From a bacterium (GTDB taxonomy: Bacteria; Hydrothermota; UBA3073; JACQXS01), in assembly GCA_030605695.1 (NCBI GenBank), contig JAUWHX010000092.1, positions 996 to 64,995 of the forward strand: a stretch of DNA of 64,000 nucleotides, written 5' to 3'. Positions within the stretch are counted from its first letter, which is position 1, and the number at the start of each line of letters is the position of its first letter. The translations under genes were made by a program, and so were the position numbers. This document shows positions 13,371 through 39,963 of the stretch, piece after piece. The notes beneath the pieces were generated by a model, which was given only the letters and a program-made list of their open reading frames with translations, was not told the origin of the DNA and did no database searches.

Positions 13371-13376
13371 CAGGGA

Positions 13377-16378: not shown

Positions 16379-16390
16379 AGCTTTACCTCC

Positions 16391-20720: not shown

Positions 20721-20731
20721 ATTTTACTGTT

Positions 20732-21109: not shown

Positions 21110-21127
21110 ACTATCCTCCTTCATATT

Positions 21128-21241: not shown

Positions 21242-21280
21242 TCATTTGAAGACCTGACCATCCTCTTTCGTCATCAACAG

Positions 21281-21323
21281 CTTTGATAAATTTATCAAGT
21301 TTAAAAGAGCAGTGTTTTGACAT
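21281..21323. repeat. 43-bp direct repeat, copy 2, containing the palindrome TTGATAAATTTATCAA (21283-21298)
   Basis: CTTTGATAAATTTATCAAGTTTAAAAGAGCAGTGTTTTGACAT. On the minus strand both copies begin with ATGTCAAAACAC. Confidence 0.85.
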
Positions 21324-21382
21324 TTATTTTATCCCAATATTATCTTTGTTTCTAAGATTTTAAAAATTATACTAAACTGAAT

Positions 21383-22261: not shown

Positions 22262-22271
22262 TTATTTCAAC

Positions 22272-23366: not shown

Positions 23367-23370
23367 ACTA

Positions 23371-24942
23371 TTACTTTCTTCTTAATACTAAAATTGATTC
23401 GGCATTTATTGAATTCTTAGAGTGGATTAGATATGATTTCTGCACTGTCATACTTATTTTTTCTACGAATTTGAAGTTATTCTTCTCGGCAATATAGCCA
23501 ATAAAATCATCTGTCGGAATATCGAATTTTTCACTACCTGCAGTTGTTTTATTTTTTCCTACGACAAAAAATGCAAATTTGTTTTTCTTGAGAACCTTTG
23601 AAATCTGACTTATTCCGTAGTGCATATCAAGAAAATATTTGTAAAGCAAAGCAGCAGTGTTCTTTCTGCGAAAACCAACACTTGCATCTTTATTTAGTAG
23701 ATAGATTTTTTTTAAAAGTTGAACTATTTCTATTGGCAACACAGAAGACTCGAAATTTCTCTCTAATTCCTTATCTAATTTCTCCCGTTTTGATTTGGTA
23801 ATTTCTCTGTTGCCGATCAGGCTTTCTTCTAATTCTCTAAAAGTTGACTTGTCGGCAAATCCGAACACAAACAATGAAAGTCGGTCTGTGTCAACATAAG
23901 GTAATGCTGTTGCGTAAGGTGGTGAAGTAATGAGCAAATCGATTGAATTTGCTTTTAGGTTTGTACTTTTAATCAATGTTCTGATATCTCCTAAATAATT
24001 TTGAATATTTGAGGTCAATTTGAATCTGTCAAGCAATTGGAATTTTTCAAGGTTTTCAGTTTGTTCGTTTAGATTATTCTTGAAAACTTCAATTAGATTT
24101 TCAGGAGGTGTATCTCGCCTTCTTCTGATTCTTAATTGTGATGGGTCTTGATATGAATATTCTCGCAGGAGATTACTTAAAATAACTTTAGAAAATAGTT
24201 TATAAGTTTCATTATTGAATAATTTAATAATTTCTTGTATAAAAATAATTTTTTTAAGAGTATTTTCAGGAAACCAATTTTTCAAATAATTAGCGTCTAC
24301 AATTCTATTATAATTATCAATTACTATTTTCTCCCAGCCGGTTTTTTTATTTAGGTTTTCAAAAGCTTTTCTTATATGTTTCAAGTCATTTTGTCTAAGC
24401 AGCAAGCTTTGCACCTTAGCTTTAGCCATAAGATATGCAATCGGATTGATGTCAACACCAACAGCGTTCGCGCCGAACAGAAAACTTTCGACGAGAGTAG
24501 TTCCACTGCCGCAGAATGGATCCAAAACTGTATCACCTTTTTTAATACCTGCATAATTCATAAACGATTTTGCGAGTTGAGGATAAAATCTGCCTTTGTA
24601 TTCGTGAAGTGAATGGGTTAAATAACGGATTTCCCTTGATTTATTTGGCTTTAAGTCTTGAAAGAGACTTGGCTCATAAGTCTTGTAACTTTCCACTACA
24701 GATTGGTCTGTCAGAATGTTTGATTTACCAAATTGAGCGTTTCGATAATGGAATTCACTATAAAAAGTAAGTTTCTTCAACTTTAATTCATCCATTAATT
24801 TGCTTGTAGTAAATTTAATTCCCTCTTTGGTAATAGTTTTGTTTATTACAGACGGGAATTGATTCTCGAACTCTTTAATTGCAAGTTCTTTTTCGTAGTC
24901 TCTAAGTTTATATTTTACAAAATTTACTTGATATTCGAACAT
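23371..24942 (-). CDS. DNA methyltransferase (N6-A or N4-C)
   Basis: AdoMet motif I DPFCGSGTTLVE and catalytic motif IV ITSPPYATALPY. Confidence 0.85.
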   Translation of the reverse strand: MFEYQVNFVKYKLRDYEKELAIKEFENQFPSVINKTITKEGIKFTTSKLMDELKLKKLTFYSEFHYRNAQFGKSNILTDQSVVESYKTYEPSLFQDLKPNKSREIRYLTHSLHEYKGRFYPQLAKSFMNYAGIKKGDTVLDPFCGSGTTLVESFLFGANAVGVDINPIAYLMAKAKVQSLLLRQNDLKHIRKAFENLNKKTGWEKIVIDNYNRIVDANYLKNWFPENTLKKIIFIQEIIKLFNNETYKLFSKVILSNLLREYSYQDPSQLRIRRRRDTPPENLIEVFKNNLNEQTENLEKFQLLDRFKLTSNIQNYLGDIRTLIKSTNLKANSIDLLITSPPYATALPYVDTDRLSLFVFGFADKSTFRELEESLIGNREITKSKREKLDKELERNFESSVLPIEIVQLLKKIYLLNKDASVGFRRKNTAALLYKYFLDMHYGISQISKVLKKNKFAFFVVGKNKTTAGSEKFDIPTDDFIGYIAEKNNFKFVEKISMTVQKSYLIHSKNSINAESILVLRRK

Positions 24943-24948
24943 AGCTTC

Positions 24949-26091
24949 CTACTTGATGTTTTCGAAAACTACAATCTTTTCCGTCTTGATATTTCCAATC
25001 ATAGGATTAAACGACTTTTTTCTAAGATTTAAGTTTCTGGTAAATTCAGTTACGAAATTGAAAGGAGTATTTCTTGCAACTTCTTTCAGAATTTCATCAT
25101 TTTTAATACTTCTACCCTTCAAAATGGAATTGCCAATTACCAAAACAAAATATGAACCAGGCTTTAGAATTTTACGTATATTAAAAAAACATTTTCCCAT
25201 GTCTCGCATAAAATCAAATTCGTCTGGTCCATTTTTCTTTGAGTAATCAGCATGGGCTCCAATCTCACTTTTACGCAGAGAATAAGGATTCATTTCAAGC
25301 CAAAACAGTCTGTATTTGTGGTAAAGATGATAATCGTAGGCATTGGGGTAAGGTGGTGATGTTACAACCAAATCAGCACTGTTATCAGGAAAAATATTTT
25401 CTTCTCTAGTGTCTGCAACTTTAAATTGTGAATCCCCTTTTGTTAAGTCTTGATAACATTCTTGCATTTTGCCACGAAGCTTGGAAAGTTGTTTGGAAAA
25501 TTTTTCAAAAGTATCAAAATGGCTTATGTTCTTTTGAACCCTTACATATCTCGTGTCACTATCTTGGTTAGAAACGTTTACTATTATTCCTGAAAGAGCA
25601 ACAAGACAAAAGTTTTTTAAATCTTGGTTATCTATATTTTCAATTTCATTTTTAAGAAAAAAAAGTTCAGCAATGACGAAATCTTTAAACCATAAGTCTA
25701 TGTTAGGTATATCTGGCTTTTTAAAATCTTTTATTTTGCCAGTATAGTATTCGTCAATTTTCTTGTAAACTCTGTTCAACAATGTATCAAGTTTCTTAAA
25801 TTGAACTGGATTTACCGGTGTAGTTTTTGCTTTAGAAATGAGAACGGCTAATTCGTTGACATCATTACCAATTGCATTTCTACCGAGAATATTTGCTTCA
25901 ACTGCTGTAGTGCCACTTCCAAGAAAAGGGTCATAAATGGTATCTCCTATATCTGAAAACTGCTCGATAAATTGTTTTGGGATTTGTGGAATAAATTTAG
26001 CTGGATAGGGATGCATATGATTTGTTGCAGTGTTCGTTTCTGCTTTAACAAAGTCCCAATCAATTTTTTCCAATATAGCTAATTCTGTCAT
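24949..26091 (-). CDS. DNA methyltransferase (N6-A or N4-C)
   Basis: DPFLGSGTTAVEA and VTSPPYPNAYDY. 6-nt gap to the next methyltransferase. Confidence 0.85.
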   Translation of the reverse strand: MTELAILEKIDWDFVKAETNTATNHMHPYPAKFIPQIPKQFIEQFSDIGDTIYDPFLGSGTTAVEANILGRNAIGNDVNELAVLISKAKTTPVNPVQFKKLDTLLNRVYKKIDEYYTGKIKDFKKPDIPNIDLWFKDFVIAELFFLKNEIENIDNQDLKNFCLVALSGIIVNVSNQDSDTRYVRVQKNISHFDTFEKFSKQLSKLRGKMQECYQDLTKGDSQFKVADTREENIFPDNSADLVVTSPPYPNAYDYHLYHKYRLFWLEMNPYSLRKSEIGAHADYSKKNGPDEFDFMRDMGKCFFNIRKILKPGSYFVLVIGNSILKGRSIKNDEILKEVARNTPFNFVTEFTRNLNLRKKSFNPMIGNIKTEKIVVFENIK

Positions 26092-26192
26092 TGTTGATTT
26101 CCCTTCAAAAATACTCTACAAATAATATTTTGTCAATGTTTTTCTCCTCTGAAAATTGTAGGGGACAGACATTGCCTGCCCCCCATTCAAAA

Positions 26193-26461: not shown

Positions 26462-27097
26462 TTACTCGTCTGCTAAATTCGGTATTGAGGTAATCACGAT
26501 TCCCTGAATTTGAAAATCCGTTGTCAAAACAATAGGCTTATGCTGTTCGTTTGTAGACCTGGGTTTTAATACAATTGCCTTGTCCGAAGAATGGAATTCT
26601 TTTATAGTCGCTTCATTATCAATTAAAGCAATAACGATATCTCCATTGATAGCTGTAGGTTGCTGACGCACTAAAACTAAATCCCTGTCATTTATACCTT
26701 TTTCATTCATAGAATCACCTTTAGCTCTCAACAAGAAATACCTGGATGATGGACGAGCCAATTTTGTAGACACCGGAATCATCGCCTCAATGTTTTCTTC
26801 AGCGAATATCGGCGTTCCACAAGCAACTGTACCTACTAACGGCACATCAACTGTTTGAGCCTGACCCCTATCCTCCTCTAATCCTTTCATAAATTGAAGT
26901 TTGTTGTCTGATTTGCGACGACGCAAAACGCCTTTTTTTATTAAACTATCAATAATCAAGGAGATAGAGCGTGGCGAGCGATACCTCATAGATACCATAA
27001 GCTCACGAACGGAAGGAAATTTCTCTTTGTTCACTATTGAATTTCTAATATACCGGATTGCCTCCAATTCTTTGCTTGTAAAGTCTTTATCGTTCAT
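26462..27097 (-). CDS. LexA/CI-like S24-peptidase repressor
   Basis: LexA-type wHTH (FPSVRELMVSMRYRSPRSISLIIDSL), cleavage region GTVACGTPIFAEE, Ser/Lys dyad (KGDSM, ATIKEF). Start moved to ATG 27097 on promoter evidence. Confidence 0.8.
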   Translation of the reverse strand: MNDKDFTSKELEAIRYIRNSIVNKEKFPSVRELMVSMRYRSPRSISLIIDSLIKKGVLRRRKSDNKLQFMKGLEEDRGQAQTVDVPLVGTVACGTPIFAEENIEAMIPVSTKLARPSSRYFLLRAKGDSMNEKGINDRDLVLVRQQPTAINGDIVIALIDNEATIKEFHSSDKAIVLKPRSTNEQHKPIVLTTDFQIQGIVITSIPNLADE

Positions 27098-27104
27098 TAT
27101 ACAA

Positions 27105-27132
27105 ATAATACACCATTTATATAGCTTGTCAA
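27105..27132 (-). promoter_or_regulatory. Sigma70-type promoter placing the TSS at or near the repressor ATG (leaderless mRNA)
   Basis: The minus strand reads TTGACA-16 nt-TATTAT-TTGTATA-ATG. No RBS is possible in the 7 nt before the ATG. Confidence 0.55.
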
Positions 27133-27287
27133 GTATTTTTTTGTATTTTTGAAATTTTTTCTTACCCTTTCTCAACTCTGGAGTAGAAAAATTTAGATAT
27201 ACTGAATAGATAAAGGAGGCAAGAAATTGCAGGCAAAAAATACAAAGTTTTAAATATCTTTAATGATATCCCTTATGATATCACAAA

Positions 27288-27641
27288 ATGGAAAACCGCT
27301 TTTTGATGAATCCAAGCAGAATTACTGTCATAGACCTTTATAGAATAGCTGACCTGCTTGCTCAGATAACCTGGATAGAGGAGAAGCTTGAAAAGTTGCT
27401 GGAGCAGTATGAATCCATTATCAATCCTATGTTTCAAAACCAATCCAAAGCTCAAATAGAGTTTGAAGTAGCTCATCTATCAAATACGGGCAAGTTCTTG
27501 AATAAATTAGTATTCGAGCTACACCAACAAGAAGATATAGAGACTCCATTCATAGTGGATATTGTAAGACACAAGAACAAGGCTGAACAACTTATCAGTA
27601 GAGTTTCTGAAATAATAGGTTTGGGGGCGGTTGATATTTAG
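27288..27641 (+). CDS. Hypothetical protein divergent from the repressor
   Basis: 117-aa helical ORF. TGATATC-N5-TGATATC lies directly upstream of the start. Confidence 0.45.
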   Translation: MENRFLMNPSRITVIDLYRIADLLAQITWIEEKLEKLLEQYESIINPMFQNQSKAQIEFEVAHLSNTGKFLNKLVFELHQQEDIETPFIVDIVRHKNKAEQLISRVSEIIGLGAVDI

Positions 27642-27687
27642 TGTAGAGTTTATGCGTCAAAAAATAAAACAAGGAGGTGTATAAAAA

Positions 27688-27951
27688 ATGGCTGAACCGG
27701 TAGAAGTTTTCAAATCTGGAACCGTGCAAGCATCGGTATTTCTGAACAAAGTGAAGACCAAGGAAGGAGATGAGATCGAAATTCCGACAATTAGTTTTAG
27801 AGTCAGATATAAGGATAAGAAAACTGGAGAGTGGAAGAGCACGAATAGCCTTGATGAACGCCAAATTCCGCAGGCAATTGAGGTTTTAGAAAAAAGCAGG
27901 GAATTCTTGAAGAAATTGAAGTCCCAGAAAAAAGAAGAAACACCAGAGTAA
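27688..27951 (+). CDS. Small protein, possibly a PC4/YdbC-like ssDNA-binding fold
   Basis: GGAGG RBS. ...ISFRVRYKDKKTGEWKSTNSLDERQIPQAIEVL resembles bacterial PC4-like proteins. Weak call. Confidence 0.35.
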   Translation: MAEPVEVFKSGTVQASVFLNKVKTKEGDEIEIPTISFRVRYKDKKTGEWKSTNSLDERQIPQAIEVLEKSREFLKKLKSQKKEETPE

Positions 27952-27954
27952 GTG

Positions 27955-28368
27955 CTAATATTTTTTTCTTATTTTATTCTGAAAACCGTAAGCTCTATGG
28001 TTCAAGACATTACTAATACTTCTAATAATATACGACTTGTAATTATTCCTCAGAGTAGAAGGATATACTGGAATTAAATCAAGGTTGGACTTAGCATATG
28101 CCTCTCTTTTCTTAATAATCCCTCGGTTATAATTCTGGTCGTTTTCCATACCATAATATTCCAGAACTATATGATAGTCTGTTAAATAAAAATCAGGGTA
28201 GTAAATCCTGGTCTTTGACTGTTTATCCTTGACCAAGAGTCCCTTTTCATACTCAAAAGGAATACCATATTCATTAAGAAGTTGTGCAATCTTCCTCTCT
28301 CCTTCAGACTTATAAGAGCTCTTTTGGATGTGGGACTCCAGATTATCATTATCCCCTTTATCACTCAT
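27955..28368 (-). CDS. PD-(D/E)xK / Vsr-like endonuclease-fold protein
   Basis: GERKIAQLLNEYGIPFEYEK...RIYYPDFYL...HIVLEYYG fits E...PDF...hhEhxG. The ATG overlaps the upstream stop (ATGA). Confidence 0.5.
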   Translation of the reverse strand: MSDKGDNDNLESHIQKSSYKSEGERKIAQLLNEYGIPFEYEKGLLVKDKQSKTRIYYPDFYLTDYHIVLEYYGMENDQNYNRGIIKKREAYAKSNLDLIPVYPSTLRNNYKSYIIRSISNVLNHRAYGFQNKIRKKY

Positions 28369-29618
28369 TTTCTCAACTTCTTGAATTCTCTGAACTCACG
28401 CTTTGTTATTTTAATCATAAGGTCTTCCAGAACTTTCATCTGCTTGCAAATTCTGAGAATTCCATACTCATATCGTATTGCTTCATTTATCCATTTCTTG
28501 GAATCTTCAGTCTTCCCTGCATTCAAATTGACAATTACCATTTTCAAGGAATATGTAAAATCTTTATCATATTCTTCTATCTTTTTCTCAAAATACCTTA
28601 GTTTCTCCTCGCACCCTAACTTGGCACGCTGTTCTGTAATAGTTATCCTCAGTTTCTTCTTCAGATTATCAGGTAATTTTCTATATCTTTCCCTCAATGA
28701 CTCAAATACTCTTAAATCAAACCTCATTAGCTTAGTATCAATATCTTTCAGAGCAGCCAATAAACGAGTAGCTTCATGTTCCCTGGGAACAATATCAGCA
28801 ATTTTCTGCGAAATAAGCCTTCTACCTTCTGCTGAGCCTCCATGCTCATCTGTAATTTTCATAATCTCCTGCAGGTCTCGGATAATTTTCTTGCTTTCCT
28901 TCATCTCTTTTTTAGTAATCCTTTCCAGTCGACTACGAATTATCGCTTTTTCCTGTTTTTCTTCTTTAGGAAGCCTGAGGTCTCTGGCAGTCTCAACTGG
29001 CTGTTTCACCTTCCTCGCAAGTGTTCTCATTGCCTCCTCACTTCTTGGAAAAAGTGCTCTGACTCCTTGAAATAATGCAATAAATACAGCTATCAATAAA
29101 ATACTGTGCAAAAAAGCTGTCCACTCATTTTTCTGCATCCAATCAAAAATATTTGGTGAAACAGCTCTCATAGAAAAATAAAGCATTACAACAGTTGCTG
29201 AACTTGAGAGTGTCCTATTTGCTGTCAGTCTCTGTAATCCCTGGAATATGGTTATACCTATAAGGATGGTGAATATACCAGCAGCCACAGGGCCAAAAGA
29301 CCGAAGAGACCATCCCATCTGACGCTCCATTAGTACAAGGGAAATAGCCAGGACAATACCGACTCCTGTAACTATTGCTCTTCCGCCACGATTCTCTCCA
29401 AACATCTTGCCCAGAGTCACTTTGGCTATACCGACAAAAATCACGAGATAGATTGCCAGATCCCATACCGTGCTGTATTTGTCATAGGCTCTTGCAATAT
29501 CCAGCCCTGCAAGTGGGGCGAATAGCTGGTCCAGAATATTTTGGGCACTGACCTCTGGGATAAAAACTGGAACTAATATAAATAGGCACAGAATTGCAAG
29601 TATCACCACTTTTTTCAT
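28365..29618 (-). CDS. Membrane protein: signal peptide, about 4 TM helices and a roughly 215-aa charged helical domain
   Basis: MKKVVILAILCLFILVPVFIPEVSA, hydrophobic helices to about aa 200, then a K/E/R-rich coiled-coil-like region. No family recognised. Confidence 0.55.
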   Translation of the reverse strand: MKKVVILAILCLFILVPVFIPEVSAQNILDQLFAPLAGLDIARAYDKYSTVWDLAIYLVIFVGIAKVTLGKMFGENRGGRAIVTGVGIVLAISLVLMERQMGWSLRSFGPVAAGIFTILIGITIFQGLQRLTANRTLSSSATVVMLYFSMRAVSPNIFDWMQKNEWTAFLHSILLIAVFIALFQGVRALFPRSEEAMRTLARKVKQPVETARDLRLPKEEKQEKAIIRSRLERITKKEMKESKKIIRDLQEIMKITDEHGGSAEGRRLISQKIADIVPREHEATRLLAALKDIDTKLMRFDLRVFESLRERYRKLPDNLKKKLRITITEQRAKLGCEEKLRYFEKKIEEYDKDFTYSLKMVIVNLNAGKTEDSKKWINEAIRYEYGILRICKQMKVLEDLMIKITKREFREFKKLRK

Positions 29619-29740
29619 TCTGATGGTTAGAATACATTTCTACTATAATAATTTTGCGGTTTTTAAGCGGATTCTGGAAGAAAGTTTTTTATATGATTGA
29701 TGTTTTATGAGTGCAGTGGAATTTATGAGTGGAGATAAAG

Positions 29741-30832
29741 ATGGATATTGAGGACTACCTTGCTAAGAGAATGAAACTCGCTAAAGCTCACCGGAATAAG
29801 ATAAAGGACTTCAAGGTATTTGACTTTAATTATATTCCTGCGAAACCGATTATGAGAGAAGAAATTAAGCCTGTGATTGATGCTATGGTTATGTATCAAA
29901 AAGCTTGTCTGAGCCACTCGGCACTTTTGGTGGGGTCAAAAGGAAGCGGCAAAACTCTTATGGTCAAGTACCTTCAGAGACTCTTTGAAAATAAAATAGG
30001 TCTTACAGTCAAGTATGCTAATTGTAGAAGTAACAACACTTCTTTCAAAATTATTGCCCATCTTACCAATTCCAGGGCAAGAGGGTGCTCTCTTTCAGAA
30101 CTATGGAAAAGGTTTGAAGAGATGTATCCAGGCAAAACTGTTGTTATTCTTGATGAAATAGACCTTATTTCTCCTAAAGATAGAAATAAAGACATTCTCT
30201 ACTTGCTAAGTAGAAGCGAAAATAACTATATGACCATCATCCTGTCAAATAACCCAAAATTCTTGTATGAGCTTGATGCACCTACAAGAAGCTCATTACA
30301 GCCTGAGATTATTTATTTTAAGAACTATGATGCCTTACAGATGTTTGAGATACTGAAAGCACGAGCTACAGAAGGAATCAGGAAGCTTTCGGCAGGAATA
30401 TTAAAGAAAATCAGTGCACTCACAGTTCAGAACACAAACTCTGATGTGAGGGTAGCTATAAAGACATTACTATATTCAGTTATAGAATCCAACAAGAGTA
30501 CCCAAGAAAACTTTGAGAATGCTCAGCGTGATATAGTAATTGATATGATAAATGACCTTAATGACAAGAATATTCTGGCTTTGAAGGCAACATCCGCAGA
30601 CAGAAAAAAGTTTGTTAAAGATGTCTACAAGGGATATGTAAAGCTAAGCAACCTCCACAAGGAGAAAGCATTCTCATATGTCCATTTTTATAATAATTTA
30701 AGCTATTTACAATCTCTGGGGCTAATATTACTTGTTTCTACCAAGGTAAATCGTGCCTACACATACAGAATATCCTTATTATTCGATGAGCAGGTTCTTA
30801 ACAGTGTTTATTCTATGCGTTTTGGTAGGTAG
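29741..30832 (+). CDS. Orc1/Cdc6-type AAA+ ATPase with a C-terminal winged helix
   Basis: FDFNYIPAKPIMREEIKPVIDAM...ALLVGSKGSGKTLMV (Walker A), VVILDEIDLI (Walker B), ILYLLSR...IILSNN, NSDVRVAIKTL. The WH-like tail reads SYVHFYNNLSYLQSLGLILLV. Start at ATG 29741 after GGAG. Confidence 0.75.
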   Translation: MDIEDYLAKRMKLAKAHRNKIKDFKVFDFNYIPAKPIMREEIKPVIDAMVMYQKACLSHSALLVGSKGSGKTLMVKYLQRLFENKIGLTVKYANCRSNNTSFKIIAHLTNSRARGCSLSELWKRFEEMYPGKTVVILDEIDLISPKDRNKDILYLLSRSENNYMTIILSNNPKFLYELDAPTRSSLQPEIIYFKNYDALQMFEILKARATEGIRKLSAGILKKISALTVQNTNSDVRVAIKTLLYSVIESNKSTQENFENAQRDIVIDMINDLNDKNILALKATSADRKKFVKDVYKGYVKLSNLHKEKAFSYVHFYNNLSYLQSLGLILLVSTKVNRAYTYRISLLFDEQVLNSVYSMRFGR

Positions 30833-30991
30833 AGTGTGCACAGTTTATGCGTCAGCACAGATTTTGGATGCAGGTATGTTTGCAAATTTTATACTATATC
30901 TTTCAATATAGAAAATAATAATATAATAAAAAAAGAAAACCTAACATTTTATTATTTAGTTTCACGTGTAAACTCCACACACACTCTTAAG

Positions 30992-31276
30992 TTAGGACTC
31001 TTGGTCTTGCACACAGACTACATAAATTCTTTTGATACAAGCTTTGTTCATTGGCTCGGTCTTGTTAAAGCAGGCAGGGTCAATTTCCCTGTAGACCATA
31101 ACAGTGCTGTTTGGACTGTATGTCTTGCAGAGGTCCATATCAACTTCTAAACACCTATTCGTTGATACGAGTATTATTGTAGCATGAATTGCCAGAATTA
31201 TTGAGAACACCAATATTAGAAGTAGTAATTTTCTTGTAATATCTTCCCTGAGCCACTTATGGAGACGTTTCTTCAT
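30992..31276 (-). CDS. Possible small single-pass membrane protein
   Basis: 94-aa ORF with an N-terminal TM helix (LLLLILVFSIILAIHATIILV). No clear RBS. It lies in an otherwise non-coding AT-rich gap. Confidence 0.3.
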   Translation of the reverse strand: MKKRLHKWLREDITRKLLLLILVFSIILAIHATIILVSTNRCLEVDMDLCKTYSPNSTVMVYREIDPACFNKTEPMNKACIKRIYVVCVQDQES

Positions 31277-31599
31277 GCAAGTTCAGAATATGCACAAATA
31301 TATAAGCTTTTTGTTAGAATATAGCTCAAACGCCAAATAAAGCCTGCTGAGGCATTTTTTCTTATGGGGTAATATTCTGTGATACCTTTGAAAATTCAAA
31401 TAGCAAGAAAAGAAAGGGGGTTCCGCACCTCCCCCAAAGAAAAGAAAAAACTTGCAATTTTCAAAATTATAATTAATAATTAAATGCAAACATTGCAAGC
31501 AAGAACAACTCATAGGTAATCATATAGAATGGATTAAATATCATATTAAGAGGTCTGGATAGATGTCCCAAAAAAGTATAAAAAAATAGAGGAATAAAT

Positions 31600-34500
31600 A
31601 TGTCTGCTTTAGACAAGGATACAAAATTAGAATTTCCTCACGTGTTGGTAATAGATGCTTCGGCAGGCTCAGGCAAGACTCATACATTAACACAGAGATT
31701 TGTTCAACTTATTCTATCAAATCAGATATCCCGAAACGAACTGGCAAACGTTTTAGCAATCACATTTACCAACAATGCGGCGAGAGAGATGAAAGAAAGG
31801 ATTCTCAATTGGCTCAAGAAACTTGCTTTTGACGAAGACTGTGACGAAAAAAGCCAGACACTTGAACTTGTTGACATAACTTCTCAAGAATTGTCTCAGA
31901 AGGCCACGAAAGCAGTTGAGAATATCCTCAACAGATATTCTGATTTTCATATCCAGACCATAGACAGCTTTATGAGCCAGGTTCTGCGTTCATCCGTGAT
32001 TGAACTGAAGTTACCTCCAGGAGTTGAAGTTACGAAAGCTTACGATAACCTGCTTGACTACACCCTGTCGGTTATGTTAAAGGAGGTTGGCAAGGGTACG
32101 GATAAGTCTCTTGAAAAGGAAATCCAGGAGTTCCTTGATTTGCTGATTCAGGAGAAAGGAAGCTTTCCCTGGAGAGCGGTTGAAGCAGTTAGAAACACAT
32201 TTAACGATTTCCTTGTAAAGGAAGGAAAGGTATTAGAGGAAATAACCTTTGAAGATAAAAGAAATGCAATTAACGAGAGATTTGCTATAGTGACGGAGCT
32301 TTGGGAAAAGTTCTCGACTATGGGAATTGCTGATAAAATCAAGAAAAGCATTAAAACTGCCATTGAAGATAAAAATATAAAAACATTTATTGAAAAGTAC
32401 TCGCAAAATCTTCCCAGACTTAAGAATAACCAGGAAGCTTGCCAATCGTGGGCTGACTTGGCTCCTGTGGTGACAGAAATGGCAGAGTATTTCTCTGTAT
32501 CAAGGTACTATCATTATGGTCAGTTGTATAAGCGGTTTAAGAACTTGCTTGATAGGGTCAAACGGGAGAAAGAAATCATACATATCAATGATATTAACAA
32601 ATCGCTTTCTCATTATATAAGGAAAGAAACAGTTCCAGAAATTTACTACCGACTTGGTGATGTTCTGTATCACTTTTTGATTGATGAATTTCAAGATACT
32701 GACAGGGTTCAATGGGAAAATATGAAACCTCTTATTGAGGAGAGTCTTTCCAAGGAGGGCTCTCTTTTTACCGTTGGCGACTTGAAGCAGGCAATTTATA
32801 TGTTCAGAAACGCTGATTACAAGATAATGAGAGAAGTGGTGAAGGAAGTAGTAGCCCGGGATAATATAGGTGAGATGTATCTCCCACGCAGTGCAATTCA
32901 GAATGCGAGGGTGATTCCGCTTAAAGAAAACTATCGTTGTGGAGAAGTGATTTTGGATTATGTAGAAGGAATATTTAAGAACAAAGTGAATGGGTTAGTA
33001 GGAACTGAATTCCTCAGGGAAGATAGAACAGGACTGACGCGGTACATTCAGAATCCTTCGAAGGGCAGAAAAGGAAAGGGCTATGTGGAGACGAGAATTA
33101 TAAGTGGCGATGATGAGAATGCTGAAAAAGTTGCCTTGCTTGAAATCCTGAATGACATCATAAAAAGAAGATATAATTACAAGGACATTGCTATTCTTGC
33201 CAGAAAGAATGCCGAAATTGAAAAAATTGTGGAATGGCTCACAGAAAGTAGCATCCCGGCAGCTTCCTATAGTTCACTGGATATAAGACAGCGAAAAATC
33301 ATTATGGAAATTGTCCATTTGCTAAAGTTTCTTGATTCTCCAATAGATAATCTGGCTTTTGGAACTTTTATATTGGGTGATGTTTTTACAGAAGCTGTGG
33401 GAGCTACTTCACGGAAACTGGAGACAAATGCCATTTGCGATTTCATTTTCAAAGCATCCCATGAGGAAGGACAATCAGAGTATTTGTATATTAAATTCAA
33501 AGAATCCGAGAAATTCAAGGGTTTATGGAACACATTTTTTGAGGATATTTTCAACAAGGTTGGTTATTACCCTATATACGATCTTGTTTCACTAATTTAT
33601 AGGACATTTCGTGTTTTTGAGAATTTCCAAGAAGAAACAGGTTTTCTCTTGAAATTCCTTGAAACTGTGGGGGTTATTGAGTCAAAAGGAATGAACAGTA
33701 TAAAGGATTTGATACAAATGGTGGAAGAAGATAATGATGAATCCGTTTTTAGTATCGTTCTTCCTGATTACATAGATGCAGTTAAAGTGATGACATTTCA
33801 TAAATCAAAAGGGCTTGGCTTCCCTGTTGTAATTAATATGTTATATGATAGTGGAAGTAAAAAGGACTACACTTTCTTTCAAAAATATGGGGACGAATTG
33901 CGGCAGTATTACATAATCAAAGCTTTTACTGAAAAATCCGAGAGATTGAAGAATATATATGAAGAACACCGGTTGGATGAGAGAATCGAGTTTCTAAATT
34001 GCCTCTATGTCACAAATACACGGGCGCAAGAAGAATTATACAATATAGTGAAACGGAAAGAGAAAATTGATAATCCTTGCCTGGGTCTATTTGAGGAATA
34101 CAGCGATGGAGCGAAAAGAAAGTTTGCAACTAAGCCTCCAGTTGCACAACCTGAAAGTGTAACGCTTCCTGAGAAGGTGGAGGTCGAATTTGTCGGTGAG
34201 GAAAGAGAAGACTGGTCGATCGGAAGATTACTGGAGACAAAAAGGGGAGAGTTCTTCCATGAAGTTTTGGCCCAAATTGAGTATTTGCAGGATGAGATTG
34301 AAGTTACAGTTGATAAGCTTGTTGAAGATACGCAGAAAAACAGGAAAGAGTCATATGACTTGGGGGAAGTCAAGAAGATACTTCTCCGATTCTTGAATAT
34401 AGAAAGTGTGAGAGGATGGTTTCAAGCACAATCAGACAGGGAGATTCAAACAGAAGTGGAATATAGTGATGAACAAGGTGTGCTTTATAGGCTTGATAGA

Positions 34501-34680
34501 GTCATCATAGACATAGATAAGATAACAATAGTTGATTTCAAAACAGGTGAGGAAAAGATGAGCCATTATCGTACGCAAGTGAAGAATTATGTTAAGGTAG
34601 TCAAGAAGCTCGTTCCTCAAAAAGAGGTTAAGGGATACTTAGGATTTATAGATACCTTGGAAGTCGAAGAAGTAAAATGA
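31600..34680 (+). CDS. addA: AddA-type UvrD-family helicase with a C-terminal RecB-like nuclease
   Basis: ASAGSGKTHTL, TFTNNAAREM, TIDSF, LIDEFQDTD, VGDLKQAIYMFRNA, ENYRC, TFHKSKGLGFPVV, YVTNTRAQEEL. The nuclease part has GEFFHEVL, LDRVIIDIDKITIVDFKTGE and YRTQVKNY. Confidence 0.85.
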   Translation: MSALDKDTKLEFPHVLVIDASAGSGKTHTLTQRFVQLILSNQISRNELANVLAITFTNNAAREMKERILNWLKKLAFDEDCDEKSQTLELVDITSQELSQKATKAVENILNRYSDFHIQTIDSFMSQVLRSSVIELKLPPGVEVTKAYDNLLDYTLSVMLKEVGKGTDKSLEKEIQEFLDLLIQEKGSFPWRAVEAVRNTFNDFLVKEGKVLEEITFEDKRNAINERFAIVTELWEKFSTMGIADKIKKSIKTAIEDKNIKTFIEKYSQNLPRLKNNQEACQSWADLAPVVTEMAEYFSVSRYYHYGQLYKRFKNLLDRVKREKEIIHINDINKSLSHYIRKETVPEIYYRLGDVLYHFLIDEFQDTDRVQWENMKPLIEESLSKEGSLFTVGDLKQAIYMFRNADYKIMREVVKEVVARDNIGEMYLPRSAIQNARVIPLKENYRCGEVILDYVEGIFKNKVNGLVGTEFLREDRTGLTRYIQNPSKGRKGKGYVETRIISGDDENAEKVALLEILNDIIKRRYNYKDIAILARKNAEIEKIVEWLTESSIPAASYSSLDIRQRKIIMEIVHLLKFLDSPIDNLAFGTFILGDVFTEAVGATSRKLETNAICDFIFKASHEEGQSEYLYIKFKESEKFKGLWNTFFEDIFNKVGYYPIYDLVSLIYRTFRVFENFQEETGFLLKFLETVGVIESKGMNSIKDLIQMVEEDNDESVFSIVLPDYIDAVKVMTFHKSKGLGFPVVINMLYDSGSKKDYTFFQKYGDELRQYYIIKAFTEKSERLKNIYEEHRLDERIEFLNCLYVTNTRAQEELYNIVKRKEKIDNPCLGLFEEYSDGAKRKFATKPPVAQPESVTLPEKVEVEFVGEEREDWSIGRLLETKRGEFFHEVLAQIEYLQDEIEVTVDKLVEDTQKNRKESYDLGEVKKILLRFLNIESVRGWFQAQSDREIQTEVEYSDEQGVLYRLDRVIIDIDKITIVDFKTGEEKMSHYRTQVKNYVKVVKKLVPQKEVKGYLGFIDTLEVEEVK

Positions 34681-37499
34681 AAAAAGGAATACTTGCATAT
34701 CCATCAGTAGATATCATTCAGCTTGTGGCTAACATTCTTCTTGAGGAAAAAGAGTATTTGTCCCGTAATCTTGTGGTTTTTCCTGGAAAAAGACCGTCTC
34801 ATTTTTTGAGAAGATATTTGGCTGATGTTCTCAAATCACCCTTTAGGGCTCCCAAGCTGCTGTCCATAGAGGAATTTGTCGATTTCTGTTGTAAGCTATC
34901 AGGCAGGAGGGACAGAAGGATAAATGATATCGATGCGGTGTCTATTATTTTCAATCTACACAAGAAGAATAGATTAATTGGTAGAGAAGGCGAGGAGCTG
35001 GATATTGATAGCTTTCTTATTTGGGGTTTTAAGATATTCTCGGACTTTGAAGAAATGTACATGGCAGGAGTGAAACCGTCTGACTTGCAGAAAAGTGAAG
35101 TAATTGCAGGAGAAAAACTGCCGGGAAGTATCTACGAAAGATTAACGTCTCTGTCTGTGCTTTACGAGTCTTTTTATGAATATCTTTTGGAGAACGAACT
35201 CTCTACAAGGGCATCAAGATACAGAGATACGTTGAATACTGTTGGTGAGATAGACTTGAATGTGTTTAAGAAAGTAATTTTTGTTGGCTTTTTCGCTTTT
35301 ACTAATACGGAAAGAAAGATTTTTGAGCAGTTGAAAACAAGAGATAATGTGAGTTTTATTTTCCAGAAAGGTCATGGTATTGAATTGACTATCTCGGAGT
35401 TGAATATTGATGTTGAAGAGATGGGAGAAGACGATAAAAGTCCAAAAATATCATTTTATCGGGCGATGGATGTACACGGCGAAGTGTTCTCCCTTAATCA
35501 GGTCTTACATGAAAAGAAAGACTTTGACAGGAAAGATGTTATAGCTCTTCCATCCACAGAAAGTCTTTTCCCAATAGTTCAACAAACTCTTCCTTTTACT
35601 AACAACAACTACAATATCTCTATGGGGTATCCTTTGTTCCGTACGCCTGTCTATTCCCTTATTGAGACTCTCGGGAGGTTGCTTGAGACAAGGGAGGACG
35701 ATGAATATTTTGTTCCTGATTACTTGAGATTTGTGCTACATCCCTATGTGAAAAATATCTATTATAAAGGTGCCAGTTATCCAACAAGAATTATTCTTCA
35801 TACGATAGAGGAACAATTAGTAAAACGAAATCGAAGATTTGTCAAATTGGAGGAAATCGAAGAGGATAAATCTATTATTCAAGAATGTGTGAAAAAGCTC
35901 AAAGAAGGTAGAAAAAGCAATATCAGCACCGAGAAAGTCATAAGACACTTGAAAAAAATCCATACAGTTTTGATAAAACCCTTCGAAGATATAAAAAACG
36001 TTGAGGATTTTGGTGAAAAACTTCTTGTGTTGGTAACATTCATATCTACCAGCAGTCCAGCGAAGATGCATCCTTATACAAGGCCATTTATAAAAAGGAT
36101 GATAGAGGGAATTTATGAACTCAAAACATCAGGTTTAAAGGATGAGAAGTTCAATGAAACTAAAAGTTATCTAAAATTATTAAGAAACTATTTCCGCACG
36201 GTGACATATCCGTTTGAAGGAACTCCGGTTAAAGGTCTTCAGGTTCTCGGATTTTTGGAAACACGAAACATCAAATTTAACACGCTTTATCTACTAGACG
36301 GAAATGAAGGAATAATTCCTGATACGAAAAAGGAAGATACATTGCTACCGTATGAAGTAAGAAAGCATTTAGGACTGCCGACTTATGTGGAAAAAGAACG
36401 AATCGCAAGATACCATTTTGAAAGATTGGTGAACTGTGCTAAGGAAGTTCATATATTCTATGTTGAAAGTGCGGATAAAGAGAAAAGCAGATTCGTGGAA
36501 AAGCTTATGTGGAATCTGCAGAAAGAGCATAAAAATCTGGAACTTCAGAATCAAAAAGAGGCTTTCTTCGGAGTACAATTTAGCCAAAAGAATCCAGGAG
36601 CAATTAGGAAGAATGAGGACATGATAAAATGTCTTGAAAAGCATAGGTTTTCTCCTAGTGCGTTGGATACCTATTTGCATTGTCCACTCAGATTCTATTA
36701 CCAGTATGTTTTGAATTTACAGGAAAAAGAAGCAATCTCAGATGTTTTGGAAGCAATTAAAGTAGGTGACATAGTTCACAAGATTCTTGAGAAGTTCTTC
36801 AAACCAAAAGTAGGTCGGGAAATGAAAATCGAGGATGAGGATTACCAGAGAATGGACGAGATAGTTGAAGATCTCTTTGCAAAACATTATGGTGGAAATG
36901 TCGAAGGGGGAAGTTATTTGACTAAATTGCAGGTCAAAAGAAGAATGAGGGATGTTATTAACTTGCATAATAACAAATTTTACGATGTGGTGATTGAAGA
37001 GTGTGAAGATTGGCATGAAGGTAAGATTACTTTATCTAATGGACAGAAAGTAAACCTTGTAGGAAAAATTGATAGGATTGACAGAAGAAATGGGCAGATT
37101 TGCGTAGTTGACTACAAGACAGGAAAAAATACTGATGTGCCAAGTACTACGAAATTTCCTGCCTCGCCAAGGGAAGAATGGTACAAGACTTTGAAGTCAG
37201 TTCAACTACCTTTTTATATACTTGTATATCTCGATGAGCACAAAGATATTTCCATAAACGAAATCAACAGTTGTTTAATGCTCCTGGGAACAAAGACTAT
37301 CAAAGAGGAATTCCTCTTTAAGGACAAAACAGAGAGAAAAAAGTTCTTTGTAATGTATAGAGAAGCAATAACTACGCTAATCGGTGAAATACTAGATAAG
37401 AATGTCGAATTTTCCCCGACAAAAGATTTTGAAAAAGAATGCGTATGGTGTAGTTACAAGAATATTTGTGGCACTCAATGGGTAGTGAAAAAATGGTAG
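34677..37499 (+). CDS. addB: AddB-type subunit: degenerate helicase-like N-terminus, PD-(D/E)xK nuclease and a 4-Cys cluster
   Basis: No Walker A (VFPGKRPSHF). SPSALDTYLHCPLRFYYQYVL, GDIVHKILE, GKIDRIDRRNGQICVVDYKTGK, QLPFYILVY, CVWCSYKNIC. ATGA overlap with addA. Confidence 0.8.
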   Translation: MKKGILAYPSVDIIQLVANILLEEKEYLSRNLVVFPGKRPSHFLRRYLADVLKSPFRAPKLLSIEEFVDFCCKLSGRRDRRINDIDAVSIIFNLHKKNRLIGREGEELDIDSFLIWGFKIFSDFEEMYMAGVKPSDLQKSEVIAGEKLPGSIYERLTSLSVLYESFYEYLLENELSTRASRYRDTLNTVGEIDLNVFKKVIFVGFFAFTNTERKIFEQLKTRDNVSFIFQKGHGIELTISELNIDVEEMGEDDKSPKISFYRAMDVHGEVFSLNQVLHEKKDFDRKDVIALPSTESLFPIVQQTLPFTNNNYNISMGYPLFRTPVYSLIETLGRLLETREDDEYFVPDYLRFVLHPYVKNIYYKGASYPTRIILHTIEEQLVKRNRRFVKLEEIEEDKSIIQECVKKLKEGRKSNISTEKVIRHLKKIHTVLIKPFEDIKNVEDFGEKLLVLVTFISTSSPAKMHPYTRPFIKRMIEGIYELKTSGLKDEKFNETKSYLKLLRNYFRTVTYPFEGTPVKGLQVLGFLETRNIKFNTLYLLDGNEGIIPDTKKEDTLLPYEVRKHLGLPTYVEKERIARYHFERLVNCAKEVHIFYVESADKEKSRFVEKLMWNLQKEHKNLELQNQKEAFFGVQFSQKNPGAIRKNEDMIKCLEKHRFSPSALDTYLHCPLRFYYQYVLNLQEKEAISDVLEAIKVGDIVHKILEKFFKPKVGREMKIEDEDYQRMDEIVEDLFAKHYGGNVEGGSYLTKLQVKRRMRDVINLHNNKFYDVVIEECEDWHEGKITLSNGQKVNLVGKIDRIDRRNGQICVVDYKTGKNTDVPSTTKFPASPREEWYKTLKSVQLPFYILVYLDEHKDISINEINSCLMLLGTKTIKEEFLFKDKTERKKFFVMYREAITTLIGEILDKNVEFSPTKDFEKECVWCSYKNICGTQWVVKKW

Positions 37500-37515
37500 C
37501 ACGCCAAGATATAGT

Positions 37516-39963
37516 ATGATTACAAAAATTAATGAGTTGAAATATATCTGTAATTTTCAATGTTTTTTATGGCAAAATAAAATACCCGAATTTTCCAAGG
37601 TGAATATTATATTCGGGTACAATGGGAGTGGCAAAACAGTTTTCTCAAATGTTTTTAAGCTGTTTTCTACAAAAGAAGATACTGCTAATTTATTGTTTAG
37701 CGAACTGGCATCAAATGACAGTGATGCTTCAGTGGAAATCGCAATAGATAAGAAGAAAATCAAATACAAAGATAGTTGTCTTAAAAAGGATATTTACGTT
37801 TTCAACTCAGATTTTATTACAAAACACGTTTATGATGGGACAAAAGCGAATATATCAGAATTTGATAGTGCAGTAACTACTAAAGAACAACTTACAAATC
37901 CCAAAATTCAGCACCTTGAAGAAGAAATAAACAAATTAGAACAAAACAAAACAGAAGAAGAAAGTCAAAAGGAAGCTTTAGACAAAAAATTTGAAGAAAT
38001 AAAGGATCGTTTATCTCGCGAATTCAACCAAAATATTATTGGTAAAAGAGTTACTGTTACGCAATCATTAACAATACCAACAAAAAAAGCAGCAGAAATT
38101 CGAAAAGAATTAGATAGTTGTTATCAACAATACCAACTGAGTAAAAAGCAAGAGACTTTGAACAAAGATAAACAAATTTTAGAGGATGTAGATTTTCAGA
38201 CTATCAAAATTGATGCCCAATTAATCTCTCAGGTATTGGGAAAAACAATTTCGAAAGTTGCTCGTGAAAAAGTTGTTCAAAAATTAACACGTTATTCTAG
38301 TTTTGTACCTACAAAGGTGGAAAACCTCCAAGATTGGTTTGAAGACGGGCATTCTTTTCTACAAGATATAAAAAAGAAAGGAGAAACTAAGTGCCCATTA
38401 TGTGATAGTGATATTCAAAAAGGTATGGAAGAATTATTAGATGAATACAATAGTTATTTTAGTGAAGAACATAAAAATCTTTCTCAGCAGATTGAATTAC
38501 TAATGAGAAATATTGAAGGAATAAAGAATTTACTTTCCAATAATAAAACTATAGCTTTGCAACTTAAAAATATTTTTGATAGATATGAGAGTTTACATAG
38601 AGAAGAAAAGAATAAAGACGAGCGGGAAGATTTTAAGCTTAATAATTTAGAAACTAATCTTAAAAGCTTGAAAGAGAGACTTGCAAGCAAAAAGAATGAT
38701 TTATTAAGAACCATGACCAACAATGATTTAATCAGCGAGATAGAGGCAACAATTACAAACTACAACTCTCAAGTGGAGAAAAAAGAAAACATGAAAGATA
38801 AGTTATTAGAAAAGTTAAAGCAATCTTTTGACTCCAGTGAATTAGAAAAACAGGCAAAAGAATTTGTGAGGCAATTAACACAGGCAGAATTCAATGAACA
38901 CAATGGTGGTGAAAAAATAGAAAAATATCAAGAAATAAAGAGACAAATAGAAGGAATAAAAGCTCAGCTAATACCCATTGAAAACCAACGAAAGACAGAA
39001 GTTGATAGCTTAAAGAACGAGTCAAAATATATTAACGATTTTTTGAAAAAATCAGGAGTTCATAATTTTACAGTAGATATTGATAAAAAACAAACTCAAG
39101 AAAACATACAAATTCATTACAAAAATGGTTGTACAAGGTCAAAGTTAAAATACTCTCTTAGTGAAGGTGAAAAAACAGCATTGGCTTTCGCTTATTTTTT
39201 AAGCCTAATCAAATATGAAGTATTTGATAATACAAGAGATAATCTTGCCCAACAAACAATTGTTGTTATAGACGATCCTATATCGAGTTTGGATGAAGAG
39301 CGTTTATATACTACTGCTTACTTAATTAGTCATTCATTTAAAGATGTAGAACAACTTTTTGTATTAAGTCACAACCTTATTTTTTTAAAGTTTTTTAGTA
39401 ATATTACCACTCATGATTCTAAAGAAAGACAAGATTATTATCTTTGTAATCATAAAATGACATTAGACTCTTTACCGACAGGTTTAACAAACTACACAAC
39501 GGTATATTTTCAAAAACTACATGATATTATTGAATATCAAGAAAACCGTATAAAGTATGATGAAGTCAAAAAATTTATTCCTAATCACATTAGAGTTGTA
39601 TTAGAAACATTTTTAAGTTTTAAATTTGCTGCCTTAAAGCAAGGAAGTTCAGGAGAAAAATATTATTCTGCAGGATTAGACAAGCTTATAAACAACTTGA
39701 AAAACAAAACACATCTTTTTGAAGGATTTGTTGAAATTGAAGATATTGATAAATCCAATTTTATTGAAAAACTAGAAAAAATTAAAAGGATAACAGATTC
39801 CCAATCACATGGTGGTCCTCAAAGTATTGATGAGTTTAATTTTATAAGTGAAAATGAGCTAAAAGACATAACTAAAGATGCTTTAAACATTATAAAATAT
39901 TTAGATCAAATTCATTTTGACTCTGTTAAAGAGAAAGTTAGTAATATTACAAACTCTTCTTGA
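37516..39963 (+). CDS. RloC/PrrC-like (AAA_13-type) ABC ATPase with a CxxC zinc hook
   Basis: IIFGYNGSGKTVFS (Walker A), coiled coil with GETKCPLCDSD, LSEGEKTALAFAYFL, VVIDDPISSLD, VLSHN. The C-terminal region has PNHIRVVLETF ... DSQSHGG (R-x3-E ... H). 16 nt downstream of addB. Confidence 0.75.
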   Translation: MITKINELKYICNFQCFLWQNKIPEFSKVNIIFGYNGSGKTVFSNVFKLFSTKEDTANLLFSELASNDSDASVEIAIDKKKIKYKDSCLKKDIYVFNSDFITKHVYDGTKANISEFDSAVTTKEQLTNPKIQHLEEEINKLEQNKTEEESQKEALDKKFEEIKDRLSREFNQNIIGKRVTVTQSLTIPTKKAAEIRKELDSCYQQYQLSKKQETLNKDKQILEDVDFQTIKIDAQLISQVLGKTISKVAREKVVQKLTRYSSFVPTKVENLQDWFEDGHSFLQDIKKKGETKCPLCDSDIQKGMEELLDEYNSYFSEEHKNLSQQIELLMRNIEGIKNLLSNNKTIALQLKNIFDRYESLHREEKNKDEREDFKLNNLETNLKSLKERLASKKNDLLRTMTNNDLISEIEATITNYNSQVEKKENMKDKLLEKLKQSFDSSELEKQAKEFVRQLTQAEFNEHNGGEKIEKYQEIKRQIEGIKAQLIPIENQRKTEVDSLKNESKYINDFLKKSGVHNFTVDIDKKQTQENIQIHYKNGCTRSKLKYSLSEGEKTALAFAYFLSLIKYEVFDNTRDNLAQQTIVVIDDPISSLDEERLYTTAYLISHSFKDVEQLFVLSHNLIFLKFFSNITTHDSKERQDYYLCNHKMTLDSLPTGLTNYTTVYFQKLHDIIEYQENRIKYDEVKKFIPNHIRVVLETFLSFKFAALKQGSSGEKYYSAGLDKLINNLKNKTHLFEGFVEIEDIDKSNFIEKLEKIKRITDSQSHGGPQSIDEFNFISENELKDITKDALNIIKYLDQIHFDSVKEKVSNITNSS

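Follow-up and report, generated by a model that had tools for sequence, protein, structure and literature searches.

Orc1/Cdc6 proteins acting on origins that contain origin recognition boxes (ORBs) are a hallmark of archaeal and eukaryotic replication, whereas bacteria use DnaA. Here we describe an Orc1/Cdc6-type gene, designated orc, located in a 64,000-nucleotide stretch of a Hydrothermota contig (JAUWHX010000092.1, positions 996 to 64,995 of the forward strand, assembly GCA_030605695.1; hereafter the window), together with the 20-bp boxes that accompany it and its relatives in other bacteria. In archaeal origins, two inverted ORBs flank AT-rich regions, the cdc6/orc1 gene lies between ORB clusters, and the activity of a Halobacterium autonomously replicating sequence is lost when half of the inverted repeat is deleted (PMC1904270). 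Some small mobile replicons, the plasmids of Picrophilus oshimae and of haloarchaea, use Orc1/Cdc6 as their replication protein, and integrated elements in Thaumarchaeota encode it as well (PMC6563490). Comparative genomics has described neighborhoods, termed capture systems, in which an ATPase of the Orc/CDC6 clade is combined with HerA/FtsK, a nuclease of the restriction endonuclease (REase) fold, and a winged helix-turn-helix (wHTH) protein in mobile contexts (PMC10853773). That account describes no cis-acting boxes or cassette, and the function given there is a prediction.

The window locus resembles archaeal origins such as those of Sulfolobus and Pyrococcus in that orc is flanked by boxes of approximately 20–25 bp, of which an inverted pair encloses an AT-rich stretch (PMC1904270). 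Orc has the same domain layout and length as archaeal initiators such as Sulfolobus Orc1-1 and Aeropyrum ORC1, and the glycine of the initiator-specific insert and the basic residues of the wing are conserved in the bacterial proteins. In contrast to the archaeal initiators, the bacterial Orc is accessory, multi-copy, and patchily distributed, is not the chromosomal initiator, and has a box sequence of its own. Furthermore, neither MCM nor another helicase occurs among its conserved neighbors, the usual partners being HerA/FtsK and a small nuclease. The likeness to the capture systems holds family-wide; unlike them, the window copy is without HerA/FtsK, but it shares with them a putative REase-fold nuclease. 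Whereas the Orc1/Cdc6 and ORB design and the Orc/HerA neighborhoods (PMC10853773) were already known, the conserved bacterial module, the sequence of its box, the central palindrome, and the partnership with HerA/FtsK without MCM are new. In the literature searched, we found no description of the bacterial Orc family, its boxes, its cassette, or an origin-like layout in bacteria. We tentatively favor the explanation, which we hold at a little short of an even chance, that Orc is an initiator-type protein that regulates its own gene, has the origin-like cassette as its cognate site, and belongs to an accessory module.

Sequence, predicted structure, and distribution of Orc

The orc gene occupies positions 29741–30832 of the plus strand, with an alternative GTG start at 29729, and its 363-residue product is, by sequence and predicted structure, a full-length AAA+ protein of the Orc1/Cdc6 type with a winged helix. 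The NCBIfam orc1/cdc6 profile TIGR02928 matches residues 22–334 with an E-value of 2.6e-36, the Pfam families AAA and AAA_22 score above their cut-offs, and Cdc6_C matches residues 283–352 slightly under its cut-off (E = 2.4e-4). The closest solved structures by sequence are those of Sulfolobus Orc1-1 (2qby_A, 3e-17) and Orc1-3 and of Aeropyrum ORC1. The AlphaFold2 model, built from 20 relatives with a predicted local distance difference test score of 79, contains a five-strand AAA+ core followed by a lid, and ends in a winged helix whose wing is flexible. In this model, helices 101–109 and 118–128, located between strands 89–94 and 133–138, form the initiator-specific insert between strands 2 and 3. 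A single linker helix (residues 254–271) connects the lid to the winged helix, which is composed of helices within residues 275–326 and a hairpin of residues 329–346. When the model was compared with the PDB using Foldseek, the top seven matches were archaeal Orc1/Cdc6 proteins aligned over their full length (including 2qby, 2v1u, and 1fnn), with E-values from 4e-18 (2qby_B) to 4e-13, and eukaryotic ORC and Cdc6 ranked next.

The original prediction had recognized an archaeal-type Orc1/Cdc6 homolog from an N-terminal FDFNYIPAKPIMREEI stretch, Walker A (GSKGSGKT) and Walker B (ILDEID) motifs, sensors, and a winged-helix tail. All of these are present and conserved across relatives, and since the best profile and structure matches are to archaeal Orc1/Cdc6, winged helix included, and not to another AAA+ clade lacking that domain, the identification holds. 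Walker A, Walker B, and Asn170 of sensor 1 are invariant or nearly so in the 20 relatives. Arg237, also nearly invariant, is assigned to sensor 2 by alignment, in which it falls opposite the GDAR-motif arginine of the archaeal proteins. The insert contains an invariant Arg114–Gly115 pair, and Gly115 aligns with Gly120 of Sulfolobus Orc1-1, which contacts DNA (PMC3089459). The basic wing residues Lys335 and Arg338 are invariant in the same 20 sequences. The possibility that the protein is a helper ATPase of the IstB/DnaC kind was rejected, as Orc has a winged helix and reaches only 19.8 bits with the IS21 IstB profile, whose cut-off is 200.

Searches identified 812 relatives of Orc, the best 120 of which are all approximately 362 residues long and 53–63% identical to it. 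Lengths within the family range from 361 to 365 residues, identities overall are 50–63%, and the mean column identity in the 20-member alignment is 71%. Counting one genome per species, the hosts are mostly Planctomycetota (Phycisphaerae, Sedimentisphaerales, Pirellulales, and Brocadiia), with others in Verrucomicrobiota/Lentisphaerae, Hydrogenedentota, and Nitrospirales. Archaeal proteins are 24–30% identical to Orc (26–28% in the one-genome-per-species data). The clade proved compact when compared with a library clustered at 50% identity, where its next full-length relatives, among them a Thermoprotei Cdc6 at 30%, reach at most 36% identity. The only database label of the family is ‘Cdc6-like ATPase’.

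Several metagenome-assembled genomes carry two or three diverged copies of orc, and the GC content of the gene follows that of the host locus from 28% to 63%. Tyrosine integrases adjoin orc in several loci and appear in 17 loci in the neighbor count described below. In 39 of 40 loci, no tRNA integration site was found within 10 kb. In the explanation favored here, the orc module is accessory, horizontally spread mainly among Planctomycetota and their relatives, and probably integrative.

Conserved boxes and the inverted-box cassette

A 20-bp box, (A)GAGWGWGTGSAGTTTAYGCGTSA, emerged from the comparison of approximately 130 related loci. It was assembled from k-mers enriched within 300 bp on either side of orc, which recur in 13–17 of 51 loci, against at most 3–8 in controls. 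A scan with a position weight matrix (PWM) detected 129 sites in 734 kb of genome-derived loci, compared with five in shuffled sequence. The pattern recurs in 80 metagenome loci, which overlap the genome set in part, and the layout of the boxes was seen in more than 100 bacterial loci. Sites located more than 6 kb from orc are rare (1 of 129 and 3 of 135). In 35 of 51 genome-derived and 58 of 75 metagenome loci, a box on the coding strand ends 1–8 nucleotides ahead of the orc ATG. Where 6 kb of flanking sequence is available on both sides, 18 of 20 and 10 of 13 loci also have an inverted pair, with the plus-strand box preceding the minus-strand one. This pair immediately follows the orc stop codon or else comes after the genes c4 and c2, which encode a helical partner protein and a HerA/FtsK-type ATPase. 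All 33 loci with long flanks have boxes, and the sole gene common to all of them is orc.

The AGTTTA core of the box is invariant. The box shares a GAGTTT core with ORB1–3 of Pyrococcus (CCCCCAGAGTTTCATTTCC...; PMC1904270), and this six-nucleotide overlap is not significant alone. The same applies to the AGTTT core shared with the motif of Sulfolobus Orc1-2, a protein with the canonical Orc1 fold whose promoter motif contains AGTTTC (PMC6061795). The AGTTTA-core boxes described here also lie just ahead of start codons. Unlike in the Orc1-2 case, the inverted pair with its AT-rich spacer lies away from any promoter in the window.

Some loci differ in box sequence or number. A GTTAA variant is found in every box of several loci (L024, L045, L069). 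In locus L037, at least six box-like copies with the variant core GAGTTAAYRCG form an iteron-like array (2040–2390) that occupies the approximately 350 bp between orc and c21-c25-c27, a zinc-ribbon operon downstream of orc. Two further box-like copies are situated ahead of the orc ATG in the same locus (905–945).

In the 64-kb window, the PWM scan found four sites and no more, none of them farther than 3.3 kb from orc. A pattern search likewise gave four matches against 0.28 expected, a number reached in none of 100 shuffles. Site S1 (GTGTAGAGTTTATGCGTCAA, 27641–27660, plus strand) is located 28 nucleotides upstream of the start of the neighboring gene c10 and has a PWM score of 28.8, where the maximum is 32, and one mismatch. 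The degenerate site S2 (CAGTGGAATTTATGAGTGGA, 29714–29733, plus strand; score 12.6, two mismatches) lies eight nucleotides ahead of the orc ATG. The left arm of the inverted pair, S3 (GTGCACAGTTTATGCGTCAG, 30836–30855, plus strand; score 24.6), begins four nucleotides after the orc stop codon, a position that is occupied by a box in related loci too. The right arm, S4 (GTGTGGAGTTTACACGTGAA when read on the minus strand, 30961–30980; score 29.3), has no mismatches.

The arms S3 and S4 enclose a spacer of 105 bp (30856–30960) with a GC content of 20%, within the lowest 0.3% of the window. This spacer is a candidate unwinding region and includes the A/T stretch at 30883–30960. Spacers in the family measure 85–325 bp, with a median of 172 bp, and in 36 pairs their GC content averages 9.6 points under that of their own locus, where the standard deviation of controls is 5 points. 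The most AT-rich 40 bp of the spacer is significant in 17 of 30 loci, and the AT dip is strongest in the architecture found in the window. The spacer also carries a central palindrome, TTTCAATATAGAAA (30901–30914), positioned 46 bp from each box. The palindrome TTTCNATATNGAAA is found in 13 spacers, mostly 37–48 bp from the right box, compared with two matches in 569 kb outside spacers.

The conservation of the cassette is of a protein-binding type, not that of a hairpin stem, because left and right boxes show no co-variation beyond that predicted from column frequencies and single, unpaired boxes exist. An RNA or DNA hairpin was rejected on the same grounds, even though the arms can pair (z = -3.3). 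An attP-like recombination site is disfavored because integration would split attP, yet the cassette is intact on contigs of 0.5–0.9 Mb, which are presumably chromosomal. Transposon ends are likewise disfavored: a transposase is lacking, the upstream box takes up the space that a promoter would need, within-genome copies are only 73% identical, and both synteny and the similarity of paralogs reach past the boxes. Two diverged copies from one genome share 73% of their DNA sequence in the genes and 87% in the cassette.

In the orc-c4-c2 architecture, the spacer of approximately 174 bp contains the conserved internal blocks CTTTATAAA, TTTCCCACCACTTTGAAGTG, and ATCGATCG (alignment A2). Relative to orc, the blocks in L004, L006, L015, L019, L020, and L022 are the mirror image of those in L009, L016, L059, and L002, as if the interior of the cassette could lie either way round between the boxes.

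The original prediction had placed an origin-like region in the 767-bp tract downstream of orc (30833–31599), described as AT-rich and mostly non-coding. The origin-like architecture beside orc stands, by virtue of the inverted 20-bp boxes around the A/T stretch and the box ahead of the ATG, and not of the repeats proposed initially. Those two inverted repeats, CTATAT/ATATAG and CTTGCAAT/ATTGCAAG (31451–31499), are present in the sequence and are at chance level: 73 inverted pairs occur within 2.3 kb, many of them longer than these two. They are conserved in none of the related loci compared, and we rejected them as origin elements. The A/T stretch has a GC content of only 12.8%, whereas the tract as a whole, at 33%, is little below the 37% of the window. 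The tract also contains a minus-strand open reading frame (ORF) of 94 residues (30992–31276), which is a gene call in the public contig. This orphan ORF adjoins the module outside its conserved part, is absent at related loci, and has zero homologs among 5.8 billion proteins. Of the tract, only the initial 160 bp are part of the element, and the remainder comprises the orphan ORF and the ordinary promoter region of an AddA-like gene. A scan against Rfam found no RNA family at the orc locus, and promoter and terminator scans of the locus were at chance level. Gene orientation and GC skew both switch at 29.6 kb in the window, which is compatible with an origin, yet in a 64-kb window the skew merely mirrors gene direction.

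Neighboring genes and the remainder of the window

Neighbors were counted by clustering the ORFs of approximately 150 loci, 135 of which carry orc. The gene c2, found in 62 loci, encodes the HerA/FtsK-type ATPase (Pfam DUF87, TraG P-loop), whose best PADLOC match is the HerA domain of DndH, and c4, the helical partner of approximately 187 residues, is found in 56. The other recurrent neighbors are the small protein c3 (64 loci), the small helix-turn-helix protein c7 (58), the small PD-(D/E)XK nuclease c5 (40), c10 (22), the membrane or coiled-coil-like protein c6 (21), and an operon of E1, JAB, and ubiquitin-like proteins (about 25).

The conserved partners in the window are c10, c5, and c6 only. 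The gene c10 (27688–27951, plus strand), present near orc in 22 of the 135 loci, encodes a conserved protein of 87 residues that has no match in Pfam, PDB, or PADLOC and only Foldseek matches with E > 0.4, so that our guess of a PC4-like single-stranded DNA binder was dropped. The genes c5 (27955–28368) and c6 (28365–29618), both on the minus strand, form an operon divergent from orc. The product of c5 is a putative nuclease of the PD-(D/E)XK, or REase, fold, with a weak match to Pfam Phage_endo_I (2.2e-5) and one to PADLOC HEAT_CxxC_PD-DEXK (1.4e-11). The 417-residue product of c6 is predicted from its sequence to be a membrane protein with a charged coiled-coil-like tail, and has no family match in Pfam, NCBIfam, or PADLOC. 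Neither c2 nor c4 was detected by tblastn within 10 kb of the window orc. Of the 33 loci whose flanks extend for 6 kb or more in both directions, 28 have c2 and 17 have c5; the window is one of the five without c2. A 497-residue ORF on the minus strand 20 kb from orc (51784–53277) has a weak tblastn match to c2 (27% over approximately 120 residues, E = 1e-6).

The original prediction had offered, as an alternative, a conflict-system ATPase tied to the neighboring nuclease or to the AddAB genes. The first link is supported by c5, a neighbor of orc in 40 of the 135 loci. The second is not, since AddAB-like genes adjoin orc in none of the relatives. The region 31600–39963 encodes an AddA/RecB-like helicase-nuclease of 1026 residues and an AddB/Cas4-like nuclease of 940 residues, followed by an AAA_13 ATPase of 815 residues that matches the PADLOC candidate PDC-S06 (1.7e-56). 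The AAA_13 gene, too, adjoins orc in no relative, and the three genes are probably a separate defense-type module. The proposed link to a PriS-like primase is not supported either: the gene matches the primase small subunit in Pfam with an E-value of 1e-3, below the cut-off, and is located 20 kb away, and no primase occurs among the conserved neighbors. The match is to one (8544–8981) of three consecutive short minus-strand ORFs in the region 7382–13913, which also contains a Replic_Relax relaxase-like gene (12444–13370) and a TrwB-type coupling protein (10016–12457). This ORF is not conserved near orc, and the three may be the fragmented primase gene of a separate conjugative element.

The region 16000–26100, with a GC content of 27–35%, contains an SMC-like ATPase of 808 residues, a WYL-domain fragment, an rve-type integrase fragment, a PLD-family nuclease, and two DNA methyltransferases, and looks like a mosaic of defense and mobile genes. 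That the host is a bacterium, as had been proposed, is confirmed by a class A RNase P RNA (5758–6125) and a LexA-like repressor (26462–27175); a tRNA-Pro is also encoded in the window.

In many loci of Planctomycetota, a four-gene operon encoding a ubiquitin-like protein of 74 residues, a cysteine-rich protein of 350 residues, a JAB peptidase, and a ThiF-type E1 is found directly upstream of c9-c3-c7-orc, approximately 2–6 kb from orc and in conserved synteny (L004, L006, L009, L012, L015, L017, L019, L020, L059, and others). It resembles the bacterial ubiquitin-like conjugation systems of the Bil type. In L070, an element with the c5-c6-orc-cassette module of the window type contains a DUF5615/DUF433 pair, a PIN-like toxin and its antitoxin (1229–1834), and the module ends with two tyrosine integrases beside host sugar-metabolism genes.

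Possible functions of Orc and its boxes

According to the explanation that we tentatively favor, Orc would be a working ATP-dependent and sequence-specific DNA-binding protein that recognizes the (A)GAGWGWGTGSAGTTTAYGCGTSA box of approximately 20–25 bp. We infer that the boxes are bound by Orc, because orc is the only gene that all box-bearing loci have in common and because its DNA-contact elements are as conserved as the box itself. Binding to the box directly ahead of its own start codon would enable Orc to control its own expression. The inverted boxes, the AT-rich spacer, and the central palindrome would together form a cis-acting site for Orc, which, by analogy with archaeal oriC, would most likely be the replication origin of the element. 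DNA melting and replication as consequences of this binding are speculative, as is the identity of the helicase that would be loaded, for which the candidates are the host DnaB and the usual HerA/FtsK-type partner of the family. As this partner is absent from the window, the window copy may be reduced or dependent on help provided in trans.

Several observations weigh against an initiator. To our knowledge, bacteria are without MCM, the helicase that is loaded by archaeal Orc1. The hosts of the archaeal Orc1/Cdc6 plasmids supply MCM, whereas those of the Orc family described here are bacterial, and no free plasmid form was found. No relatives from bacterial plasmids are present in PLSDB, where the matches are archaeal plasmids at no more than 30% identity, the best being a 7.6-kb plasmid of Picrophilus oshimae (30%, 4e-29). 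The phages of INPHARED and IMG/VR gave zero relatives, and none of the 80 metagenome loci is on a circular contig with terminal overlap. No replicative helicase, primase, or polymerase occurs among the conserved neighbors in the loci counted. The commonest architecture of the family, orc-c4-c2, has a spacer that is only mildly AT-rich. Orc scores below the curated cut-offs of TIGR02928 (125.3 against 181.3 bits) and Cdc6_C (21.5 against 25.1), and thus represents a divergent bacterial clade and not an equivalog. Boxes ahead of genes, such as S1 and S2, are equally expected of a transcription regulator, which is what the archaeal Orc1 paralog Orc1-2 is (PMC6061795). Moreover, comparative analysis has read neighborhoods of Orc/CDC6, HerA/FtsK, and a nuclease as defense systems (PMC10853773).

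The last two points correspond to rival explanations. It is unlikely, but deserves consideration, that the module serves conflict or defense in the manner of the HerA/FtsK capture systems, with Orc positioning or switching on a nuclease and a DNA pump against invaders, and the boxes acting as its own operators or as a self-anchoring site. The presence of c2 and its small partner c4 beside orc in 28 of the 33 long-flank loci, and of c5 in 17, is in keeping with this, and the best PADLOC match of c2, the HerA domain of DndH, fits the published combination of Orc/CDC6, REase, HerA/FtsK, and wHTH (PMC10853773). The window is rich in defense-type genes (the PLD nuclease with two methylases, SMC-like, AAA_13/PDC-S06, and AddAB-like), and the E1/JAB/ubiquitin-like operon adjoins orc in many loci. 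However, these systems are defined by an inactive nuclease domain, called invariable in their Orc (PMC10853773), that is inserted where the AAA+ core meets the winged helix. The bacterial Orc, of 362 residues, lacks this insert and has in the model only a linker helix at this position. PADLOC-DB v2 has no match for Orc, and the published systems are themselves predicted rather than demonstrated. Nor would a foreign-DNA sensor need a conserved cassette of fixed geometry in its own locus. In the window, the cassette is bounded by the orc stop codon on one side and the end of the convergent orphan ORF on the other, so no promoter is needed there. The cassette is also more conserved than the genes. 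Another rival is that Orc is purely a transcription regulator like Sulfolobus Orc1-2, with the boxes as operators and the cassette regulating downstream genes, which we consider very unlikely. The positions of S1 and S2 just ahead of start codons suit a regulator, as does the L037 array of at least six box-like copies, which fills the gap from orc to the c21-c25-c27 operon. The Orc1-2 motif, ANTTTC within AATAGTTTCRG (PMC6061795), resembles the invariant AGTTTA core of the box. Nevertheless, the inverted pair has no downstream gene to regulate in the window or in loci where it is followed by integrases or other convergent genes. The AT-rich spacer, the central palindrome, and the fixed geometry exceed the needs of an operator, and the ATPase motifs of Orc are strictly conserved.

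FtsK-like TraB acts at clt in the integrative elements of actinomycetes, and pairings of an AAA+ loader with a ring motor have many parallels. By comparison, the cassette could be a centromere-like or clt-like loading site for the HerA/FtsK pump, with Orc as the loader or adaptor and the pump c2, which has a C-terminal wHTH, moving or partitioning the element. We regard such a transfer or segregation module as improbable. The commonest gene order, orc-c4-c2, with the cassette directly after c2 and a near-constant spacer of 172–179 bp, speaks for it, as do the tyrosine integrases adjoining orc in several loci and the membrane protein c6 as a conserved neighbor. On the other hand, boxes and cassette are kept without c2 in the window, L031, L045, and L078, the cassette of the window type follows orc rather than c2, and the box ahead of the ATG tracks orc. 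In the literature searched, there was no experimental precedent for an Orc-type loader of FtsK or HerA.

If Orc is an initiator, the absence of MCM from the host means that it would have to load DnaB or the HerA/FtsK-type ring ATPase of the family. It is conceivable, although we consider it rather doubtful, that a widespread family of bacterial mobile modules, mainly of Planctomycetota and their relatives, replicates by means of Orc1/Cdc6 on its own ORB–AT-rich–ORB origin in cells without MCM. Such modules would be naturally occurring hybrids between the two great systems of replication initiation. Bacterial elements firing an Orc-type origin would show in what way an initiator of the Orc type can be connected to a helicase other than MCM and would bear on the long-standing question of why the two initiation systems are not interchangeable. 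They would also provide a native replicon for Planctomycetota, which have few genetic tools. Even if the function proves regulatory or defensive, a 20-bp box that is conserved across phyla and tied to a conserved winged-helix ATPase still stands, as does the addition of a cis element that is missing from the published account of Orc/HerA neighborhoods. The box and Orc constitute a directly testable protein–DNA pair for a family that has so far been labeled only ‘Cdc6-like ATPase’.

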